A stretch of DNA of 64,000 nucleotides from Candidatus Micrarchaeota archaeon (GTDB lineage Archaea > Micrarchaeota > Micrarchaeia > Micrarchaeales > CABMGC01), in contig JAJZOD010000003.1 of assembly GCA_021852055.1 (NCBI GenBank), positions 82,846 through 146,845 of the forward strand, read 5' to 3'. The notes beneath the pieces are model-generated. The model ran no database searches, was not told the DNA's origin, and saw only the letters and a program-made list of their open reading frames with translations. Made by a program: the position numbers and the translations under genes. Position 1 is the first letter of the stretch. Each line of letters begins with the position of its first letter. Below are positions 3,001-63,325 of the stretch, one piece after another.

Positions 3001-4738
3001 TCTGCTTCAGAGCAGCGTCAGCGGCGTAGTTCTTGTACCTTACACATACAGTGGTACTCTTGTGCAGAACTGGAGGGACTTCCAGCTCTTGTTCGGCGGA
3101 TACGGATGCCCCGGAAGCCTGCCCGACTGGCCTACAGTTACAACAAACAAGATAGAGTACACTTATCAGGAAGTGCCTGTATCGTCGAAGCCTACTCCTC
3201 TGGCAGCAAACATAGAGGGCGGCGATACATACATCGGTTATAGGGACGCGCTGGGCAGCGACATATACATGCCGAACCTGTCGGATTTTGGCGTATCGCT
3301 GCCTCCGCAGGTCCTGTTCAATGTGTCGAGCAACAGGGTTTTCGGAAACATATACATAAACCTGACAAACAACAAGACTACAAACAAACAGACGCTGCTT
3401 AATGCCACTGAAAGGCTCGAATACGTAGTGAATACATACAGCATAGGGCAGTACATGAAATTCCAGAGCATAAGCTCTGTGCCAGTAGGCCCATATTACG
3501 GCACACAGTACGCTGCAAGGCTTCAGAACAAGCCTAGTACCAATATAGCAACAGGCTTAAACTACACCCAGCTGCCTTCCGGAGGCTCTGGTTTTGTCTA
3601 TCTTAACCTTTTCAATATCTATAAGCAGTTTGTCTGGCAGAGCCCTCTAAACCTCTATATAAACAGCACAGCCCAGGGCCTGCCTTATGGGTACAGGCGC
3701 CTGATTTATGTATATCAGGACAGGTTCAACAACACCATATTCATGCCATTGGACGCTGACATAGCTAAGTTCACTGTCATCAACATGAGCGTAATCCCGA
3801 GCATAAACCCGACAAATGCAAACCAGACAACACTGCAGATAAACGGCACTGTAGGCTACTACCAGTTCAGCAACAACGGCCTTGTGTTCGAGCCGCTTAC
3901 GGGCAACAGCCTGTACCTATACTACAACACCAATCTCAATTATATTGATTATCCTCCGACTACAGATGCGTTCCATGCAACTGCGTGCGCCTTCGGTTCT
4001 CCTGTAAACAAATTCATCCAGACCCTCACATGCAACCTTGCAAATCCTATAAATTCACCGCAATCTGCAACTGCCAATATAGTGACATACAGCCCGCAGT
4101 ACAATGCACAGGGCGCATGCAACCCAGCAAACGTACTTCTGCCTCCAGTAAATTACAACTGCAATGTGTACAACAGCGGCAAGCAGTGCAGTACAGGCCC
4201 TTACGGCCAGCGCGAATACTGCGTAGGGCTGGATTCACAGGGCGATGGCATATGCACCAGCCAGGTGGGTCTTATAGGCGTAGTGCCTACAAATGCGCTT
4301 GGGTACTTCTCGACAAATATAGTGGCTTGCGGAATAGCCGATGTAAACATACAGGCAAACTTCTATGGCTCGCCGCCTCCGGAGCCTGTCAATGCCACAC
4401 AAGCGCCTTTGGGCATGGCTGCAAATGTCGCAATTCCAGATACGGGCGTGCCTCTGCCAGGGACAAACTTCCAGCACCCTACGCAGATCACATTCCCTGT
4501 TGACAACTACACATGGCTGAACAATGACACCATAGTACAGGCCCAGATAGGCCTTTGGGAGCTAGCTTACGGCGACATTCAGGCCCTCGAGGTTATAGGG
4601 CTGATTTCGTTAGTCGGTGCTGTAATAGCCGCAAAGCTCATATTAGAGTCCCGAAGCAAAACCAGAAGGAAAAGCGTTAAAAATAGAATAAGAAAACCAG
4701 AGAGAACAAGCCATAGAAACCGTAGAAACAATAAATAA
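2..4738 (+). CDS. Giant surface (S-layer/adhesin-like) protein, 5'-truncated by the window edge. Has tandem Ig/IPT-like domains, an NHL-like segment and a C-terminal TM anchor with a basic tail
   Basis: The reading frame is open from nt 2 with no upstream stop. The motif TGSGFTPGG recurs four times in the first ~350 aa. Composition is N/S/T/G/Y/C-rich with many N-x-S/T sequons. The C-terminus LISLVGAVIAAKLIL is followed by RSKTRRKSVKNRIRK. Confidence 0.8.
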   Translation, partial: GTGSTSSVTTGDLQNGLEGPVPPNATSNNSTVKVQLQYSASSPSITATYEASTGNVIVTGSGFTPGGSVSISVSSTSGTSLATVSTTASSAGDINSQIPVSSYSVGNLDISAIDVKTFAFSNTAEVSITSSPPSSLSITATYEASTGNVIVTGSGFTPGGSVSLAFNINHQIGSTTTYTTTADSSGGINFQEPAAKQPTAYIYYIEATDVQTGSTSAEASVNVPAIVIPTMSLTASYDAAAGTISVSGSGFTPGGAVNVQLFLSSSNSFVSSVAAVAGSDGDFTTSINVNSQETSAITYYVMATNKDTNAAAKSGSVTVPAAAQNPENINAVYNEQLGAVVVTGSGFNINTKVTVSCVVLYGTNPAPSSVSDACTATTQSNATGGINVTLPPMSPSPNYYIYENIYALEINSQGVSFGPGASTHITIPQRSAGTTALIKLENTNANGICSNVSCFQLTYSQPSQLSSLQLQDIAASPSGQQVYITGQFASGIYVMSGNDLSLQSTIPLTFSASSGTTTNIGSITPANLNITYWLANNGLYNQSISFTKPGSQYITGGSGFDQAYFHHPLGIADVNGYLYVLDDWKGIVSSSDANANSGTSTSGIFFNIVMLRVLNSTGSNVPIQPTFFNDMYNNIACTPTGYLATHQNTCIPSTTLQNVKNSDWCTVNEQTGQACSIAPISGSCTFSSLGSAIAGSFTGGGVNYAEYQCISTGSLSSNYTSLATGSGSYNKNVYPPYGWVISANITGVSNGAVGQSYSLCSSFSCTKNPTQLLGGANSYLEGYAPVGPQLRAVGSCSRAGECNAFETIYSPGFSVNYNNTAVILFPNSTNSNSAHGTDEGLDNWGEILIANINWQNYTNLFSGITNYTCYVKGEENGNQNVCGGKFVNDHYYYTYNSLVDSFTAPIYLLGDPFKYYENLGTSPVLGFANQFYSTYNNGNQGSGSGSPQSQISSQCTQQVQSGSIPTACLGASGTPPTPSLSGLSLGTTTGQLAVPILSTPLLQSSVSGVVLVPYTYSGTLVQNWRDFQLLFGGYGCPGSLPDWPTVTTNKIEYTYQEVPVSSKPTPLAANIEGGDTYIGYRDALGSDIYMPNLSDFGVSLPPQVLFNVSSNRVFGNIYINLTNNKTTNKQTLLNATERLEYVVNTYSIGQYMKFQSISSVPVGPYYGTQYAARLQNKPSTNIATGLNYTQLPSGGSGFVYLNLFNIYKQFVWQSPLNLYINSTAQGLPYGYRRLIYVYQDRFNNTIFMPLDADIAKFTVINMSVIPSINPTNANQTTLQINGTVGYYQFSNNGLVFEPLTGNSLYLYYNTNLNYIDYPPTTDAFHATACAFGSPVNKFIQTLTCNLANPINSPQSATANIVTYSPQYNAQGACNPANVLLPPVNYNCNVYNSGKQCSTGPYGQREYCVGLDSQGDGICTSQVGLIGVVPTNALGYFSTNIVACGIADVNIQANFYGSPPPEPVNATQAPLGMAANVAIPDTGVPLPGTNFQHPTQITFPVDNYTWLNNDTIVQAQIGLWELAYGDIQALEVIGLISLVGAVIAAKLILESRSKTRRKSVKNRIRKPERTSHRNRRNNK
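134..486 (+). repeat. Two near-identical 74-bp segments (134-207 and 413-486) spaced 279 bp (93 codons) apart inside the surface-protein gene
   Basis: A 59-nt core (ataacagcaacatacgaagcaagcacaggcaatgtgatagtaacgggcagcggcttcac) is identical in both copies and there are 2 mismatches in the next 15 nt. Both encode SITATYEASTGNVIVTGSGFTPGGSVS. Confidence 0.9.
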
Positions 4739-5997: not shown

Positions 5998-6109
5998 GGG
6001 CTCGTAGCGCAGTGGCAGCGCGCCCGCTTTGCAAAACTTCTTGGAAAGAAGTTTTATCAAGAAGAACCAGAAAAGCGGAAGGTCGCGGGTTCGAATCCCG
6101 CCGAGTCCA
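5998..6109 (+). tRNA. tRNA-Ala(UGC) with a 40-nt intron at the canonical 37/38 position (intron 6034-6073). CCA is not encoded
   Basis: Manual cloverleaf. Acceptor GGGCTCG/CGAGTCC includes the G3:U70 Ala identity pair. D arm GCGC-AGTGGCA-GCGC. Anticodon arm CCCGC-TTTGCA[intron]A-GCGGA, with a C27-A43 mismatch. Variable loop AGGTC. T arm GCGGG-TTCGAAT-CCCGC. Discriminator A. Confidence 0.85.
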
Positions 6110-6142
6110 TAAAACTTCTTGGGAAGAAGTTTTATCAAGAAG
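6033..6142 (+). repeat. 32-nt hairpin-containing repeat, once inside the tRNA-Ala intron (6033-6064) and again immediately 3' of the tRNA (6111-6142)
   Basis: aaaacttcttggaaagaagttttatcaagaag versus aaaacttcttgggaagaagttttatcaagaag, with one substitution in the hairpin loop. The 10-bp stem is AAAACTTCTT/AAGAAGTTTT. Confidence 0.9.
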
Positions 6143-6309: not shown

Positions 6310-7530
6310 ATGATACTAAAAGAAACACTTAGACAGATAGTCAAAGCTCAGAGGAAAGACTTAGAATCGTTCAGCTACGGGGTAGAAAGGGAAGAGTTGA
6401 ATGAGATAAAACTCAATATGCATTACGCATTGATACTATCAGGTATAAGGCGATGTGGTAAGAGTACTCTACTTCACCAATTGCTTAAAAAGCTTCCAAA
6501 TTTCTATTATCTAAACTTTGAGGACACACGGCTAGATAGCTTTCAAGTTGAGGATTTCGAAAAGTTAGATGAAATCTTCAAGGAAGATTACGGTGAATCC
6601 GAATATTATCTTTTCGATGAAATACAGAATATTTATAAATGGGAGCTTTTTGTAAGATCCAGACTAGACAAACAGAAGAAATTTATTATTACAGGCTCTA
6701 ACGCTTCACTTTTAAGTAAGGAGCTTGGTACTAGACTCACGGGCAGACACATCAACATGGAACTGTTTCCATTCTCCTTTATGGAGTCGCTTTCTATGAC
6801 TAAGGTAAAGGCAAGCGCAACTTCATTCTCAGAATACTTAAGAAGCGGAGGGTTTCCAGAATATCTGAGATATAAAAAACAAGAAATACTGCGCGAGTTA
6901 TTAACAGACATAATACAAAGAGATATTATAGTAAGACACAAATTGCGCGATTCTAAAACAGTAAAGACACTTGCGTTATATCTGCTTAGTAACACGGGCA
7001 ACGAGTTTTCATATAATAACCTTAAGAAGATGTTCAATCTGGGATCAGTGAATACCGCAATAGCATTTGTTTCTTATTTTGAGGACAGCTACCTTCTATT
7101 TACTGTGCCAAAGTTTGATTACTCGCTTAAAAAACAGATAGTTAATGCCAAAAAAGTATATTCTATAGATAATGGTCTTTCTACCTCAAATTCAGCTTCG
7201 TTCTCTTCAGATTTAGGAAGGATGTTAGAAAATTCTGTATTCTTGCATCTTCGTAGGAAATATAAAGAAATATTCTACTTCAAAGGAAAAAGAGAATGCG
7301 ATTTCTTAGTAAAGGAGCAAAGCAAGATAAAAATGGCAATACAAGTCTCGTATGAGCTAAACGAAGGAAACAAACAGAGAGAATTTGACGGACTTCTTGA
7401 AGCTATAAAAAAGTTTGATTTGGCAGAAGGATTAATACTTACATTTGATCAAGAAGACAAATTCGAGATTGAGGGAAAACACATAATAGCAAAACCGGTT
7501 TGGAAATGGATGCTAGAAAGCAATTTGTAG
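6310..7530 (+). CDS. AAA-superfamily ATPase of the AAA_14/DUF4143 type
   Basis: Walker A motif SGIRRCGKST and Walker B-like motif YYLFDEIQ. Length (~400 aa) and a C-terminal region (ECDFLV) are typical of the archaeal DUF4143 ATPase family. Confidence 0.75.
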   Translation: MILKETLRQIVKAQRKDLESFSYGVEREELNEIKLNMHYALILSGIRRCGKSTLLHQLLKKLPNFYYLNFEDTRLDSFQVEDFEKLDEIFKEDYGESEYYLFDEIQNIYKWELFVRSRLDKQKKFIITGSNASLLSKELGTRLTGRHINMELFPFSFMESLSMTKVKASATSFSEYLRSGGFPEYLRYKKQEILRELLTDIIQRDIIVRHKLRDSKTVKTLALYLLSNTGNEFSYNNLKKMFNLGSVNTAIAFVSYFEDSYLLFTVPKFDYSLKKQIVNAKKVYSIDNGLSTSNSASFSSDLGRMLENSVFLHLRRKYKEIFYFKGKRECDFLVKEQSKIKMAIQVSYELNEGNKQREFDGLLEAIKKFDLAEGLILTFDQEDKFEIEGKHIIAKPVWKWMLESNL

Positions 7531-7791: not shown

Positions 7792-7853
7792 GGGCTCGTG
7801 AGCGCGTTCCGTTCGCAACAGAAAGGTCGCGGGTGCGATCCCCGCCGAGTCCA
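7792..7853 (+). pseudogene. Decayed 62-nt copy of tRNA-Ala. Both acceptor strands and the T arm are kept, while the D and anticodon arms are deleted
   Basis: GGGCTCGTGAGCGC...TTCGCAACAGAAAGGTCGCGGGTGCGATCCCCGCCGAGTCCA aligns to both ends of the 5998-6109 gene and keeps the last bases of its intron (CAGAA). It is followed by a third copy of the trailer hairpin (7855-7876). Confidence 0.75.
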
Positions 7854-7878
7854 TAAAACTTCTTAAAAAGAAGTTTAT

Positions 7879-8511
7879 TCAATATGGATTACTTAGTTTG
7901 CCAGAATCTGCCAAAAGCTTATATTTTTTTACAAAATTAAGTACAGATTTGGAAGTGTGCTTATCATACACCTTTAGGTATTTGTGCACTTTTTTGATTT
8001 CTATGGACCGCAAAAGTCCATCATAGTTCTGAGGAGGTAACTTTACTTTGTAATAGAACAGGTCTATTAACGTCTTCTCTGGATCTGAAACTGGCAATTT
8101 TAACACACCGTAATTTATTATATCAAACCCAAAAAAGTATCTTGTTGGCATATGGTGCACAAATATAACATCTTTAGGATCGTCGAATATTGTCGTACGG
8201 TTTGAACGTATTTTTTTTATTGTGAGTATTTCTGGTCTAGAATTCTGTATCCAAAGATCCCTTAATGTTAGTGCAGATAGCAACCCATAATAAAAAGGTG
8301 TATACGCAAACCCCGATACCATATCATTCTTTTTAAATGTATATACGCTTTTTTTCAATGAATACAAATCACCATTACTTTTCATGTATGATAAGATTCT
8401 CGTAAGATTTGATGATTTTATCCTCTTATTGCTGAAGTATAGTCTAAGGTCTCTGTGTGTGAAAACTGGATAATCTGAAAAATGCCTGGTTATTTCATTA
8501 ACTATTGTCAT
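7879..8511 (-). CDS. abiEi: AbiEi-like antitoxin/transcriptional regulator (COG5340-type, N-terminal wHTH)
   Basis: The N-terminal pattern ...PVFTHRDLRLYF...LTRILSYMKSNGDLYSLKKSVYTF and the C-terminal pattern ...LPVSDPEKTLIDLFYY are typical of AbiEi. It overlaps the adjacent nucleotidyltransferase gene by 14 nt. Confidence 0.65.
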   Translation of the reverse strand: MTIVNEITRHFSDYPVFTHRDLRLYFSNKRIKSSNLTRILSYMKSNGDLYSLKKSVYTFKKNDMVSGFAYTPFYYGLLSALTLRDLWIQNSRPEILTIKKIRSNRTTIFDDPKDVIFVHHMPTRYFFGFDIINYGVLKLPVSDPEKTLIDLFYYKVKLPPQNYDGLLRSIEIKKVHKYLKVYDKHTSKSVLNFVKKYKLLADSGKLSNPY

Positions 8512-9187
8512 TTATCCACTCCTTAAGTCTGTTTATCATTAGTTCAAACGATGGCGGCAGACCTGTTATTATCAAGTGATCCAGACTTGAGATATCTGAA
8601 GGGGGATTATTTTCTATCTTGGCAACCAGATTCTTTATTTTTTTAACAGTTTTATGGTCAGCCTTTTTTATTAACGAAACCAAATACCACATGTCATATA
8701 AGTCATGGGCTTCTGGATGCTTGAAGCCATCCTCATCATTAAGCTTATCTTCATATGCTACTATTTTCTCCTCCAATAAATCTACTGGGCTAAGAGATAG
8801 TACCACAATTTTGCTTTCATCAATCTTTGAATAGTCAGCGTGTATGCCTTTCTTATACTTAAAATTTATATCGATCTTCATTTTTGTGCCAACTAATTCG
8901 ACAATAAAATGCATTGTGTCATTTGACCTGCTGTATCCTTTTTCCTTAATCACAAACCCATTTTCTTGCAGAAACTTAGAAACTGCTCGGTATTCTTGCA
9001 TCTTTTCCGAAACTGTTTTCACTTTCATATAAAAATCAAGATCCCTCGAAAATCTGTTCCCTGAATAGCAACGCCATATTGCTGTTCCACCATGAAACAC
9101 GAGATTCGTATATCTACTGTATAATATCTCAATTAGTATATCTTCAAGTTTTGCTTTTTCAACTTGTGCTGGGTCTCTTAAGTTCAT
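8498..9187 (-). CDS. abiEii: AbiEii/AbiGii-family nucleotidyltransferase toxin (type IV TA / abortive infection)
   Basis: Motif FHGGTAIWRCYSGNRFSRDLDFY matches the family signature GGTAL..Y...RFS.DLDF. Size is 229 aa. Confidence 0.75.
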   Translation of the reverse strand: MNLRDPAQVEKAKLEDILIEILYSRYTNLVFHGGTAIWRCYSGNRFSRDLDFYMKVKTVSEKMQEYRAVSKFLQENGFVIKEKGYSRSNDTMHFIVELVGTKMKIDINFKYKKGIHADYSKIDESKIVVLSLSPVDLLEEKIVAYEDKLNDEDGFKHPEAHDLYDMWYLVSLIKKADHKTVKKIKNLVAKIENNPPSDISSLDHLIITGLPPSFELMINRLKEWINDNS

Positions 9188-16384: not shown

Positions 16385-16585
16385 AATGTGCAAGCCTGGC
16401 AGCATATCCAAAAGCCAAGTGCAGGCAGGAAAAGGCACGCCGGGATTGGGACTTTCACAACCTTTAGTTTTAATCAAACTTTCCCTAAAAGCCTGTTTTG
16501 AACCCAAAAGGCCCGAAGGCCACCAGATCTCGAGTTTCGCCGCGCACACTGGCGCGATACCTGGTTCTGCCATCCCGGCTCAAGA
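16385..16585 (-). ncRNA. Candidate structured non-coding RNA of unknown class. Strand is tentative
   Basis: The gap between tyrS and the next gene is 311 nt with no credible ORF. Minus-strand structures are a GGCC-UUCG-GGCC hairpin (16510-16521), a CGCGC/GCGCG hairpin (16541-16556), a 7-bp helix ACCAGGU/AUCUGGU (16559-16565 with 16522-16528) and a long-range 8-bp helix GCCGGGAU/AUCCCGGC (16572-16579 with 16439-16446). Confidence 0.3.
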
Positions 16586-48527: not shown

Positions 48528-49445
48528 ATGGCATATACAACAATAATACTTTACATAATTGCGCTTGCCTTAGTAGCGTACAAGGCTGTGTCAGTAAAGG
48601 ACACAAAGGAGCTCCTGCTGTTCATGGCGTTACTTGTTGCATCGTGGCTGCTTTTCAATTACGAAGGCTATTCAGCAATCACGACGACCCTTCTAAGCGG
48701 CTTTATAATATTCAATGCCATTACCTCATTCTACGGCAAGGCATGGGGCAGCGCATTGCTTCTCCTTGCTGCATACTACCTTTTTGCAACTTGGGGAATA
48801 AGCACAGGCATTGTCCTTCAATCTGCAGTTATAGGTGCACTGAGCACCACGCGCATGTATTCCAAATCCAAGCACAGAAAAGCAGAGGCTAAAGTTGAGA
48901 ATATGCGCAACATCTTTCAGATAGCTGCCGGAATATTTTTCATACTGCTATTTATATTTGTACAGCAGCAGTACGCATCGATACTGCTTCTGCTCGTATT
49001 CATGGCCGGCGTAGCCATAAGCAACTATACAATGAGCTCCAAAAACGGCGGCGTGTTCGATGTCCTCTCGCGTATGGAGCGGGAAGGCTTCGATTTCGGG
49101 CATGGCGCATTTTGGCTCGGGGTAGGTGCGCTTTTTGCTGCAGCATTCCTTAATGCGAATATGGTGCTTGTTGTGTTTTCTGCAATATTCTTCGGGGACT
49201 CATTTTCTACAATACTAGGGGTGCACTACGGCCATGTAAAACTGCCGTACAACAAAAAGAAAAGCGTGATAGGCACTGCCTCATATTTTGCCATAGTGCT
49301 TCTAATGTCATTTCCTATACTCTCCTACTTGGCATTGCCTGTTGCTGCTCTCGCTGCACTAGTTGAAAGCCTGCCGATACCTCTGGATGACAACTTTGAT
49401 GTTTCACTTGTGCTTTCAATAATTCTGCAGCTATTTTTGGTATAG
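48528..49445 (+). CDS. Polyprenol (dolichol) kinase / CTP-dependent CdsA-superfamily membrane enzyme
   Basis: FFGDSFSTILGVHYGHVKLPYNKKKSVIGTASYF matches the GDxxAxxxGxxxG...K.S.EG motif of dolichol kinase/CdsA. Confidence 0.6.
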   Translation: MAYTTIILYIIALALVAYKAVSVKDTKELLLFMALLVASWLLFNYEGYSAITTTLLSGFIIFNAITSFYGKAWGSALLLLAAYYLFATWGISTGIVLQSAVIGALSTTRMYSKSKHRKAEAKVENMRNIFQIAAGIFFILLFIFVQQQYASILLLLVFMAGVAISNYTMSSKNGGVFDVLSRMEREGFDFGHGAFWLGVGALFAAAFLNANMVLVVFSAIFFGDSFSTILGVHYGHVKLPYNKKKSVIGTASYFAIVLLMSFPILSYLALPVAALAALVESLPIPLDDNFDVSLVLSIILQLFLV

Positions 49446-49478
49446 AAAAGCACATCAGCAACGGTTACATCCAGTGCA

Positions 49479-49501
49479 TTTATTTCAGAGCCTGAAATAA
49501 A
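49479..49501. terminator. 10-bp-stem hairpin with T-rich arms between convergent genes. Possible bidirectional terminator
   Basis: TTTATTTCAG-agc-CTGAAATAAA gives an oligo-T run on both strands (TTTATTT on plus, TTTTTATTT on minus). Confidence 0.3.
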
Positions 49502-49611
49502 AACAACGTTCTGCCTTGGATATGTGACTGATCCATAATGTTTACTGGCAGAAGCAAAACAAGAAAATAATAAGGCATATGCCTGCAACCAGCATCTGTG
49601 ATGGAATGCAG

Positions 49612-50130
49612 CTACACTCTCCTCCCGCGCCTTCCGCCGGGCCTCTTTGTAGTGTCTGTAGGCATCGGTGTAACGTCCTCTATGCTCCCTATTCTGAAGC
49701 CTGATCTCGCAAGCGCTCTTACTACTGCCTGTGCTCCATGCCCGGGCGTTTTAGAATTATGGCCTCCGGGCGCCCTTATTTTAATATTTATGTGTGTGAC
49801 TCCTTTTTCTATTGCTGTTGCAGCAACCTTATACGCAGCCTGCGTTGCCGCATACGGCGAACCCTCTTCGTGATCTGTATCTACAACCATACCTCCGCTG
49901 CCTATGGCTATAGTTTCAGCTCCCGACAAGTCTGTAAGCGTTATTATTGTGTTGTTTTTGCTTGAGTATATGTGCGCAACGCCCCATCTCGTGCCTTTCT
50001 GTTTGTACTTCTCCTGCGCAGCCGCAACAACATTCTCGTAAGACACTTCGCTCTTTTTGGTCTGCTGCTGCTCCGTCTTTCCTTGTTTTTCTGTCTTTTT
50101 CTGTTTCGGTGCGCCTTTTTCTTTCGCCAT
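49612..50130 (-). CDS. rps11: 30S ribosomal protein S11 with a ~45-aa Lys/Gln-rich N-terminal extension
   Basis: [20 protein letters not shown]...[23 protein letters not shown]. Confidence 0.9.
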
Positions 50131-50713: not shown

Positions 50714-51343
50714 TCACTTTGACTCTTTTGCCGAAGCTGCAGCAGGTGCAGCCGCTGCAGGCTTGGCCTCTTCAGAAGGGCCTTTTGCCTGCTTAAGCCC
50801 TGCTCCCTTGCCCTTATCCTCAGCTTTTCCTGGCACTGCAGGCTGTTGTGCTGATTTCTTCATAACTCCGATAGTGGTTCCTGTCCTGCCAGTGTTTCTC
50901 GTGCGCTGTCCTCTTGCGCGCTGGCCGTACTGGTGCCTTGTCCCGATCCACGTCTGTGTTTTTATGCCCATGTCTATATCCTGCCTTGTTTTCACTATTA
51001 AATCTGTTCCTGCAACGTGCATATCCATCCCTGTCTCCAGGTCTCTGCGTCTGTTGAGCATATAAGCAGGCACACCTGACTTTGCCGGCTCTTTTATCAA
51101 ACCTTCAAGCTGTGCAACCTGCGTATCAGAAAGCGCACCGAGCTTGGTATCTTCAGGCACATTGTATGTGGCAGCGTAGCCTTTTGCAATAGCGCTCGCC
51201 ATGTTGTATCCTATGCCTTTTATCTGCATAAGTCCGCGCATGACGTTGTAGTTGCCGTTTATGTCGCGCCCTGCCATTCTAATTATGCTTGACTCTACCT
51301 TCTCTCTCTTCTGCTCCTTGCCTTTCTGTTCTTTATTATCCAT
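50714..51343 (-). CDS. rps13: 30S ribosomal protein S13 (start re-assigned to Met22 of the ORF-track model) with an Ala/Lys/Pro-rich C-terminal tail
   Basis: IIRMAGRDINGNYNVMRGLMQIKGIGYNMA... The upstream 21 codons of the ORF-track model overlap a tRNA-Ser 3' exon and intron. A TATA box lies between the tRNA and the ATG at 51343. Confidence 0.85.
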   Translation of the reverse strand: MDNKEQKGKEQKREKVESSIIRMAGRDINGNYNVMRGLMQIKGIGYNMASAIAKGYAATYNVPEDTKLGALSDTQVAQLEGLIKEPAKSGVPAYMLNRRRDLETGMDMHVAGTDLIVKTRQDIDMGIKTQTWIGTRHQYGQRARGQRTRNTGRTGTTIGVMKKSAQQPAVPGKAEDKGKGAGLKQAKGPSEEAKPAAAAPAAASAKESK

Positions 51344-51358
51344 TATTGCACCAATGCC

Positions 51359-51367
51359 TTTTATAAA
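51359..51367 (-). promoter_or_regulatory. TATA box (TTTATAAAA on the minus strand) about 16-24 nt upstream of the rps13 ATG, implying a leaderless or near-leaderless transcript
   Basis: Read directly from the sequence. It sits immediately 3' of the tRNA-Ser discriminator base. Confidence 0.5.
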
Positions 51368-51496
51368 CGCCAGGGCTGGGATTTCCACAAACTTCTGCAT
51401 ATGCAAAAGTCCATTTTGAACCCAGGTGGCTCATAGAGCCATACGCTTCCGGGTATGTTTCCAGGCGTACGCATTACCGGATTCTGCCACCCTGGC
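51368..51496 (-). tRNA. tRNA-Ser(GGA), class II, with two introns: 11 nt at 37/38 (51448-51458) and ~33 nt inside the T-loop (about 51382-51414)
   Basis: Manual parse: GCCAGGG-TG-GCA[GAATCCGGTAA]TGC-G-TACGC-CTGGAA[ACATACCCGGA]A-GCGTA. The variable arm is T-GGCTC-TAT-GAGCC-AC. The T arm is CTGGG-TTCAAA[ATGG..hairpin..GGAAA]T-CCCAG. Then CCCTGGC-G. All four stems are fully complementary once the inserts are removed, and the mature length is 85 nt. Confidence 0.75.
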
Positions 51497-52136
51497 AAGT
51501 TCATCTATTAATTATACTTCTCAATATTTAAAAGTACGTATGTTAGTATTGACCCTAATTATATGTGACATCCTCCCACTGATAAATCGTGTGGGCTTCT
51601 CAAGTGAAACATGAATATAAAATTATCTGCAAAAAGGTATATATATGTTTGTAACTGTTTGCAACAAAATCTTATTATACGGCGGGACACGTCGAAATCT
51701 ACGATCAGGGAGATTTTGTAAGACCTCAATTCCATGAGGCAATTTTTGCTGAACTGAGAGCATACCACGTGAAACATGGTTTGATGCCATTTTCTCCAGA
51801 ATGGAAAAAGGGAATTTTCCTAGATGAAGATTCGTCTAATGATTCTAGGCTACTATTTATACAGTTCGCTTTCATCCCACCTATAAATGATGTGTGATTT
51901 CCAGCTCACTTTGTTAAATCTTACTTTTGCCGTCTCTGCCAAAAATTCTAGCATCTAAACGGTCTTGTTGTGCTGCTTGATAATACCTCCTCTTCCTATT
52001 TCACTCAGTTTCCCAGCCTTTTTGGCAGATTCGGAGTTTTTAACAAGTTCTTCCAGTGCATCTAATAAGATGTTGTTAAATGCATATTAAATAAATTAAA
52101 ATAAAAAACAATAAAAAGATAACACAGTCCGCAGTA

Positions 52137-63074: not shown

Positions 63075-63325
63075 ACAACCTACTGCAGTATCCGATAGCA
63101 ACAGAAAAGGCATTAAACATGGCAGAGAGAGGCAACACTATAATATACGTTGTGAATTTCAACGCAGCCAAAAAGGACATAAAGAAGGAGTTTGAGGATA
63201 CGTTCAAGGTAAAAGTCGAACGCGTCAATACTGTAATAATGCCAGAGAACGTCAAGAGAGCGTATATAAAACTGAAGAAAGAGTATCTGGCTGGAGACAT
63301 AGCAAAGAGGCTGAAACTAGTATAA
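63071..63325 (+). CDS. rpl23: 50S ribosomal protein L23
   Basis: LQYPIATEKALNMAERGNTIIYVVNFNAAKKDIKKEFEDTFKVKVERVNT. Confidence 0.9.
   Translation: MNNLLQYPIATEKALNMAERGNTIIYVVNFNAAKKDIKKEFEDTFKVKVERVNTVIMPENVKRAYIKLKKEYLAGDIAKRLKLV

Follow-up and report, generated by a model that had tools for sequence, protein, structure and literature searches.

Which gene occupies the space directly upstream of rps13, where standard tRNA finders report nothing and where the predicted ribosomal protein S13 itself appears to begin? The question concerns a 64-kb stretch of contig JAJZOD010000003.1 (in the following, the window), for which an initial annotation, made from the letters alone, had proposed a tRNA-Ser(GGA) gene that is interrupted twice and hidden behind a spurious extension at the N-terminus of S13. 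The region in question, an unannotated stretch of 129 nt on the minus strand (51496-51368), is a real tRNA-Ser(GGA) gene that is functional in all likelihood. One intron lies in the anticodon loop and the other in the T-loop, and both recur at the same sites in most of the related genomes that carry the gene.

Exon-intron structure of tRNA-Ser(GGA)

In the direction of transcription, the unspliced gene consists of GCCAGGGTGGCAGAATCCGGTAATGCGTACGCCTGGAA (exon 1), ACATACCCGGA (intron 1), AGCGTATGGCTCTATGAGCCACCTGGGTTCAAA (exon 2), ATGGACTTTTGCATATGCAGAAGTTTGTGGAAA (intron 2), and TCCCAGCCCTGGCG (exon 3). Exon 1 (51459-51496) provides the 5' strand of the acceptor stem, the D arm, the 5' strand of the anticodon stem, and the loop bases C32 U33 G34 G35 A36 A37; it shares 86-97% identity with exon 1 of about 60 Micrarchaeota loci. 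It is followed by the 11-nt intron 1 (51448-51458) at the canonical position 37/38. Exon 2 (51415-51447) comprises A38, the 3' strand of the anticodon stem, the variable arm, the 5' strand of the T stem, and the T-loop bases U54-A59 (TTCAAA), where the 33-nt intron 2 (51382-51414) interrupts the T-loop at position 59/60. Exon 3 (51368-51381) starts with U60 and contributes the 3' strands of the T stem and the acceptor stem and the discriminator G73; CCA is not encoded.

In its unspliced form, the gene escapes detection. ARAGORN finds only a tRNA-Lys in the entire window, and none of the three tRNA-like matches that Rfam yields for the window at gathering score is located at tRNA-Ser(GGA). A permissive Rfam search reaches 19 bits in this region, versus a gathering score of 29, and places the 3' half incorrectly. 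When the inserts of 11 and 33 nt are taken out, the remaining 85 nt constitute a class II tRNA that is identified as Ser(gga) by ARAGORN, and only the removal of both inserts yields the class II cloverleaf of a tRNA-Ser. Its stems are fully paired throughout (acceptor GCCAGGG/CCCTGGC, anticodon TACGC/GCGTA, variable arm GGCTC/GAGCC, T stem CTGGG/CCCAG); the variable arm is a 5-bp helix (GGCTC-TAT-GAGCC), the serine anticodon GGA is embedded in the loop C32 U33 G34 G35 A36 A37 A38, and the T-loop of the spliced product reads UUCAAAU. The initial annotation had arrived at the same cloverleaf and the same perfectly paired stems by removing 11 and about 33 nt, and each of these elements was found as it had described them.

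The unspliced 129-mer folds with -56.6 kcal/mol (z = -4.9 versus shuffled sequences), and its minimum-energy fold already contains the acceptor, D, anticodon, variable, and T stems together with the intron hairpin. The chance rate of an acceptor stem and T arm with a T-loop insert, estimated with a generic structural scan, is 0.7 matches per 64 kb (the scan returned one spurious, AT-rich match at 63155-63273), so the pattern alone is unconvincing and was not used as stand-alone evidence. The locus is nevertheless far beyond chance, because the whole architecture is conserved with covariation in 65 other genomes.

The T-loop intron is framed by a motif of the bulge-helix-bulge (BHB) type in its strict form (hBHBh'), with two 3-nt bulges, a 4-bp central helix, and both cuts two bases into the bulges. 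The outer helix (h) is the T stem. The central helix (H) is formed by U54 U55 C56 A57 and UGGA (51387-51384; intron positions -6 to -3), and the bulges are A58 A59/A and AA/U60, where the slash marks the cut. The inner helix (h') comprises 11 bp (51413-51403 with 51398-51388; UGGACUUUUGC/GCAGAAGUUUG), four of them G-U, and is closed by the loop AUAU (51402-51399). It corresponds to the hairpin ACTTTTGC-ATAT-GCAGAAGT, originally described as having 8 bp, which is present and extends to 11 bp when G-U pairs are counted. Runs of A make the junctions 56/57 to 59/60 equal in sequence, and the non-canonical T-loop position had therefore been proposed with an ambiguous junction. The junction can now be assigned to 59/60 because only at this position does each cut fall two bases inside a 3-nt bulge, and because the relatives agree.

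The anticodon-loop intron has a relaxed motif (hBH, bulge-helix-loop), with one bulge, a 4-bp helix, and the other splice site in a loop. Its H helix consists of C32:G, a U33.C mismatch, G34:C, and G35:C; the 3' bulge is GA/A38 (NN/A38 in the orthologs), the 5' cut site lies inside a 7-nt loop, and an inner helix is absent. An A-run renders the sites 36/37, 37/38, and 38/39 equal in sequence in the window, and the assignment to 37/38 follows from relatives whose intron has T as its first base and C as its last.

Conservation and covariation among relatives

The comparison is based on 80 loci from species-representative genomes, which were recovered with an S13 profile; 70 of them are labeled Micrarchaeota or sub-taxa thereof, and two are labeled Marsarchaeota. 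Of the 80 loci, 64 contain exons of the tRNA, encoded on the same strand as S13; the contig of a further S13 homolog (P0007) and the window itself were added to these, giving 65 and 66 sequences, respectively. In these 66 sequences, the tRNA-Ser shares the strand of S13 and is usually located 10-52 nt upstream of it. The anticodon-loop intron is present in all of them, whereas the 59/60 intron (13-43 nt) occurs in 57 and the remaining nine have an intact TTCAAAT loop.

Among the 63 orthologs whose anticodon-loop insert was parsed, all have an insert of 11-18 nt that ends with CCNGNN/A. Almost every one of them retains the pairs C32:G, G34:C, and G35:C; the base facing U33 varies freely (a mismatch in 44 of the 63), and the inner 4-11 nt of the intron are unstructured. 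In two metagenome-assembled genomes (MAGs; L042 and L074), the anticodon loop reads CCGGAGA, with C33 replacing the near-universal U33; the two-intron tRNA-Ser(GGA) is otherwise intact.

The register of the T-loop intron was set by hand and checked on 56 intron-bearing sequences (the window and 55 loci). All four H pairs are formed in the 59/60 register in 54 of the 56, with bulges of the form AA/N and NA/T, and in one locus (L002) the replacement of U55 by C is compensated by a G in the intron partner. The inner hairpin, by contrast, varies in sequence and comprises 20 distinct stems, e.g., TAAACC/GGTTTA, GCA/TGC, TGGCTCTGC/GCAGAGCTA, and GCATAT/ATATGC.

Across the 39 distinct T-arm sequences, 95.5% of the cells are paired, compared with 27-56% when the partners are slid by 1-3 columns. 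Double-sided changes affect six of the 12 T-arm pairs, the observed covariation is matched by none of 500 shuffles, and all three h' pairs that were tested covary; at the T stem pair 49:65, C:G is replaced by U:A in 16 sequences. A MAFFT alignment of 17 full pre-tRNAs gives a similar picture for the cloverleaf with both splice motifs, with 93.1% standard pairs (24-50% in slid controls) and 11 covarying pairs, including all six tested pairs of the h' hairpin. The variable arm covaries across the orthologs in this alignment, and compensatory changes are found in both the variable arm and the anticodon stem. RNAalifold recovers the intron hairpin with compensatory changes even if no structure is supplied. 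It also predicts a helix between D-loop and T arm (columns 13-20 with 77-84), which was rejected as an artifact of the energy model; it conflicts with the cloverleaf and shows no compensation, only three single-sided G-U substitutions.

With the Rfam tRNA model, five of the orthologs without a T-loop intron score 41-47 bits at the predicted coordinates; the two intron-bearing orthologs that were scanned (L001 and L004) are missed.

The distribution of the T-loop intron was mapped on a neighbor-joining tree of S13, which is a short marker and only indicative. The intron is found in almost every clade, and its length depends on the clade (one has 13 nt, several have 16-17 nt, and that of the window has 22-38 nt); the nine intron-less genes form three groups. 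This distribution fits an old T-loop intron with few losses better than repeated recent gains. A stronger version of this scenario, in which the 59/60 intron is ancient, goes back to the ancestor shared by most Micrarchaeota, and has been inherited vertically and kept by selection with few losses, is considered less likely than not. If true, the intron would be among the oldest documented non-canonical tRNA introns and a counter-example to the notion that such introns are young, transposing elements. Possible reasons for its retention are that it breaks up the T arm and 3' end used by integrases as an attachment site, or that it imposes an order on the processing of a tRNA-S13 co-transcript.

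Expression, processing, and rival explanations

In the proposed pathway, a conserved TATA/BRE promoter (BRE, transcription factor B recognition element), located some 30 nt upstream of the tRNA, would start a transcript that continues into rps13-rps4-rps11. Enzymes of the RNase P and RNase Z types would process the ends and thereby separate pre-tRNA and mRNA. Both introns would be excised by the tRNA splicing endonuclease (EndA), which would cut every 3-nt bulge after its second base, and a ligase of the RtcB type would join the three exons before CCA is added. Translation of S13 starts at the ATG at 51343, behind a putative GGTG Shine-Dalgarno motif.

The putative promoter is a TATA-like box, TTTTAAATA (51525-51533, minus strand), which lies 29-37 nt upstream of the mature 5' end of the tRNA and follows a purine-rich, BRE-like stretch. 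Across 61 distinct orthologous upstream regions, columns -32 to -29 are 92-97% A/T; the consensus resembles TTTTTAAA, and in 49 of the regions the first base of the best TTTAAATA-like match falls between -37 and -30. The A/T box is again preceded by a purine-rich stretch, and there is a second A/T patch at -14 to -10. This pattern suggests that TTTTAAATA acts as the BRE/TATA promoter of the entire tRNA-Ser/S13 unit. A leaderless, strictly spaced tRNA promoter of the Nanoarchaeum type was also considered; T is found at -1 in 87% of the loci, but the idea was dropped because the position of the TATA box varies within a range of 8 nt and is not the same for the remaining tRNAs of the window.

The splicing enzyme was searched for with an EndA sequence of M. 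jannaschii (validated against PDB 1a79; 371 bits) and with segments of the EndA of Candidatus Micrarchaeum acidiphilum (ARMAN-2), taken from PDB 4fz2. The ARMAN-2 segments retrieve many full-length, three-unit homologs; the best 120 have 368-406 aa (mostly 383-391) and are 54-62% identical to the ARMAN-2 enzyme, with one at 88%, and those with a taxon name are mostly labeled Micrarchaeota. Neither query has a tblastn match in the window or the loci, and none of the 58 ORFs (open reading frames) in the window matches splicing-endonuclease Pfam families such as PF01974 and PF02778. To judge from its lineage, the genome of the window probably encodes an EndA of the epsilon2 type. The initial annotation had held that a T-loop intron requires an endonuclease of relaxed specificity. 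The need for a broad specificity stands, but it rests as much on the anticodon-loop intron, because the T-loop motif is strict and the 11-nt motif at the canonical site is the relaxed one.

Several observations weigh against the interpretation as a spliced tRNA gene. The minimum-energy fold of the T arm lengthens the intron hairpin by one pair and lacks the 4-bp H helix; for the isolated arm, the BHB conformer reaches -17.8 kcal/mol, compared with a minimum of -20.4 kcal/mol, and the full cloverleaf with both splice motifs -52.4 kcal/mol, compared with -56.6 kcal/mol. The H helix of intron 1 contains the U33.C mismatch, and, for the sequence of the window, a slipped register with a 2-nt bulge is energetically preferred (-8.8 versus -3.5 kcal/mol). 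Moreover, the 64-kb window contains no gene for EndA, ligase, or RNase P, and no EndA could be linked to the MAG of the window, as the accessions MCL4380968, MCL5106392, MCL4372215, and MCL5404889 are not near the S4 protein MCL5008344.

Four alternatives were weighed. The first concerns only expression, namely that rps13 is transcribed independently of the tRNA from its own TATA box, TTTATAAAA (51367-51359), yielding a short-leader or leaderless mRNA. The box, which the initial annotation had taken as the promoter of rps13, is present and matches the archaeal TATA consensus, and a similar TTTATAT follows the tRNA in a close relative (L081). It recurs only there, however; other relatives have TTTTATG, TTTTAAG, or spacers of 10-12 nt beginning with TTGGTG. 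Its center is located about 20 nt from the S13 ATG, whereas the usual spacing of the TATA center in archaea is about 26 nt, and a transcript started in this way would be devoid of the conserved GGTG at -9 to -6. In the window, the motif (51352-51349), read as a Shine-Dalgarno motif, is part of the 24-nt spacer between tRNA and S13 (51344-51367, minus strand; TTTATAAAAGGCATTGGTGCAATA), and GGTG followed by 5 (occasionally 6-7) nt and ATG recurs in the relatives. Many of these have a tRNA-to-ATG spacer of only 10-12 nt in total (e.g., G/TTGGTGTTTAC ATG), which leaves no room for an independent rps13 promoter. Co-transcription of rps13 with the tRNA is the more economical reading, and a separate promoter appears unlikely.

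The second alternative is that the locus is a tRNA pseudogene, with a T-loop insertion that is never removed and a functional copy elsewhere in the genome. It is favored by the failure of standard tRNA finders to call the locus. By contrast, the insert is found at the same site in 57 of the 66 Micrarchaeota sequences, with the BHB register kept and the hairpin compensated; the exons are conserved (86-97%), the stems are all perfect, and no other Ser(GGA) gene was detected within the 64-kb window by ARAGORN, Rfam, or the structural scan. The comparative results (presence, register, covariation, and intron-less orthologs) exclude chance and make a pseudogene very unlikely.

The third alternative takes the S13 models of 228-230 aa at face value and assumes that a 21-aa extension overlaps or replaces the tRNA. 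The reading frame is indeed open from TTG 51406, the start in the ORF list, and from ATG 51400, the start of the 228-aa public protein P0004. As first proposed, however, the model starts within the T-loop intron (51414-51382), as do both of these codons, and the codons of the extension are bases of exon 3 and the intron that are constrained by RNA pairing. The long model contains the peptide MQKFVEIPALAFIKGIGAI, and its match to the Pfam S13 domain begins only at residue 41 and ends at residue 173 of the 228 aa. Most aligned homologs begin at a Met that matches position 51343 (MDNKEQK...), which is the N-terminus common to the orthologs of uS13; this Met is followed by a K/E-rich stretch and then SIIRMAGRDING, which are conserved, whereas the residues preceding it are not. 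The extension is present only in P0004, which is identical to the protein of the window, and, in a different frame, in P0007. The extension of the latter is unrelated in sequence and represents the adjacent tRNA-Ser gene translated in another frame (GGAAATCCCAGCCCTGGCG yields GNPSPGV); the introns of this tRNA gene have 13 and 26 nt and occupy the 37/38 and 59/60 sites. The longer annotated S13 is an artifact of ORF calling through exon 3 and half of intron 2, and a genuine extension is hardly credible. The corrected gene starts with ATG 51343 (MDNKEQKGKEQK...) and encodes 209 aa plus stop (50714-51343, minus strand).

Retention of the T-loop insert as an extra arm of the mature RNA, or its removal without a BHB endonuclease, is extremely improbable, since conservation is confined to the BHB elements (the 4-bp helix with U54-A57, the 3-nt bulges, and a variable hairpin), the insert ranges from 13 to 43 nt, nine lineages without it keep TTCAAAT, and a retained insert would destroy the interaction of the T-loop with the D-loop.

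The genes rps4 (50709-50140) and rps11 (50130-49612) follow rps13 on the minus strand in the same unit; their exact protein sequences are found in public MAG data, and the order S13-S4-S11 is shared with L081. In many archaea, these genes are followed by rpoD, which is not the case in the window or in L081. The cluster of the window ends after S11 at a convergent gene encoding a membrane protein (region 49445-49612); in L081, a DUF192 gene follows (region 3386-3435). In the clade of the window, S13 has a C-terminal tail of about 45 aa that is rich in Ala, Lys, and Pro (...AKPAAAAPAAASAKESK; 50714-50850), varies in length, and is absent from many other Micrarchaeota S13 proteins.

Lineage, known systems, and other tRNA genes

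The S13 homologs are labeled Micrarchaeota, Micrarchaeia, and Parvarchaeum, but also Marsarchaeota. The exact S4 protein of the window (MCL5008344.1) carries the NCBI label Candidatus Marsarchaeota, as do several relatives; the proteins concerned are P0001, P0009, P0026, P0047, P0124, and P0173. S13 and EndA proteins with this label fall among Micrarchaeota sequences, and one such EndA is 88% identical to the ARMAN-2 enzyme. The label Marsarchaeota is probably a taxonomic error, and the organism would belong to the Micrarchaeota (DPANN). The expectation that the tRNA would be informative on the lineage was borne out, because it was in the Micrarchaeota that the epsilon2 endonuclease had been discovered (PMC3239211).

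In ARMAN-2, whose genome is the founding one of the Micrarchaeota, 56% of the tRNA genes are disrupted, including at non-canonical sites such as 59/60 (Fujishima et al. 2011, PMC3239211). Its pre-tRNA-Cys(GCA) carries a 13-nt hBH intron at 59/60, and its pre-tRNA-Pro(GGG) has two strict BHB introns, at 53/54 and 59/60; the three-unit epsilon2 EndA cuts strict 37/38 and relaxed hBH 59/60 introns in vitro (PMC3239211), and its broad specificity was explained by later structures (PMC3488258, PMC12397907). The window resembles ARMAN-2 in the phylum, the use of the 59/60 site, the presence of several introns per tRNA, the mixture of strict and relaxed motifs, and genes that are invisible to ordinary tRNA finders; three-unit homologs of EndA are widespread among the relatives. 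It differs in the identity of the tRNA (Ser(GGA)) and the combination of sites (37/38 and 59/60), in that the intron at the canonical site is relaxed and the T-loop intron strict, and in that the gene abuts rps13 and is overwritten by the S13 ORF call. Non-canonical 59/60 introns, tRNAs with more than one intron, and the endonuclease acting on them were already published for ARMAN-2 in 2011. The present analysis adds the example of Ser(GGA), which is conserved with covariation across the phylum. It further adds that form and site of the introns are paired the other way round, and the consequences for the annotation of S13.

Multi-intron tRNA genes have reportedly been described by Sugahara, Fujishima, and co-workers in Thermoproteales and other archaea with an (alpha-beta)2 EndA. 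As in the window, the BHB introns of Thermoproteales occupy non-canonical positions, including the T-loop, with up to three per gene and in combination with broad-specificity endonucleases (PMC3239211). Thermoproteales represent a different lineage, and their enzyme is (alpha-beta)2 rather than epsilon2. Work cited in PMC3239211 suggests that their introns were recently acquired by transposition. By contrast, the T-loop intron of the window is common to most of its phylum and has clade-specific lengths.

The arrangement of the genes has a parallel in the rpoD/S13 operon of haloarchaea, where tRNA-Ser, S13, S4, and S11 are located on one strand in the same order as in the window and are probably co-transcribed. 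The tRNA-Ser of haloarchaea is not known to carry a T-loop intron, and their operon extends to rpoD, whereas the cluster of the window ends after S11.

The results correct two annotation errors in a public MAG lineage: a tRNA-Ser(GGA), probably essential, had been overlooked, and S13 had been given 19-21 spurious residues at its N-terminus. The window contains four complete tRNA genes, of which two are missed by both ARAGORN and Rfam, and a third by ARAGORN. Genes overlooked in this manner inflate the apparent incompleteness of the tRNA sets in DPANN genomes. They do not imply a new mechanism, but they provide material for studying the gain, retention, and loss of tRNA introns and their co-evolution with the epsilon2 endonuclease.

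A second hidden class II tRNA gene is located at 16438-16579 (minus strand); its spliced form of 84 nt is identified as Ser(cga) by ARAGORN, whereas neither ARAGORN nor Rfam detects it before splicing. A 13-nt intron (TGTGCGCGGCGAA; 16548-16536) lies at 30/31 inside the anticodon stem, and a 45-nt intron (16496-16452) at the 59/60 position of the T-loop. The 30/31 insert fits a relaxed BHB, with an H helix of C25 G26 C27 C28 and GGCG and a 3' bulge AA/A31. The presence of a tRNA-Ser(CGA) with 30/31 and 59/60 introns in the same window suggests that the genome routinely carries such genes. No conclusion was drawn on a common origin of the T-loop introns of Ser(GGA) and Ser(CGA), whose similarity is weak (best z = 3.1 versus shuffled sequences). 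In another Micrarchaeota MAG (L076), a tRNA-Lys(UUU) at 3556-3654 (plus strand) has a 24-nt intron in the strict 59/60 register (TTCAAA/ATGCGGGTATCCTCCGCATGAAAT/T), indicating that the site is used in other tRNAs of the phylum.

The window also encodes a tRNA-Ala(UGC) with the base pair G3:U70 (5998-6109, plus strand), which contains an anticodon-loop intron of about 40 nt and is found by Rfam and missed by ARAGORN. A 31-nt stretch of this intron (AAACTTCTTGGAAAGAAGTTTTATCAAGAAG; 6034-6064) is repeated directly 3' of the gene (6112-6142), with 30 of 31 bases identical. At 7792-7875 (plus strand), there is a tRNA-Ala-like fragment of 65 nt that consists of the acceptor 5' strand, the T arm, and the acceptor 3' strand, without an anticodon arm or an upstream TATA box; the hairpin AACTTCTT...AGAAGTT occurs for a third time behind it. 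The fragment is separated from the intact tRNA-Ala by an AAA_14/DUF4143 ATPase gene (6310-7530), and just past it there is an AbiEii toxin gene (8498-9187). The fragment has the appearance of a duplicated attachment site belonging to an integrated element that has decayed.

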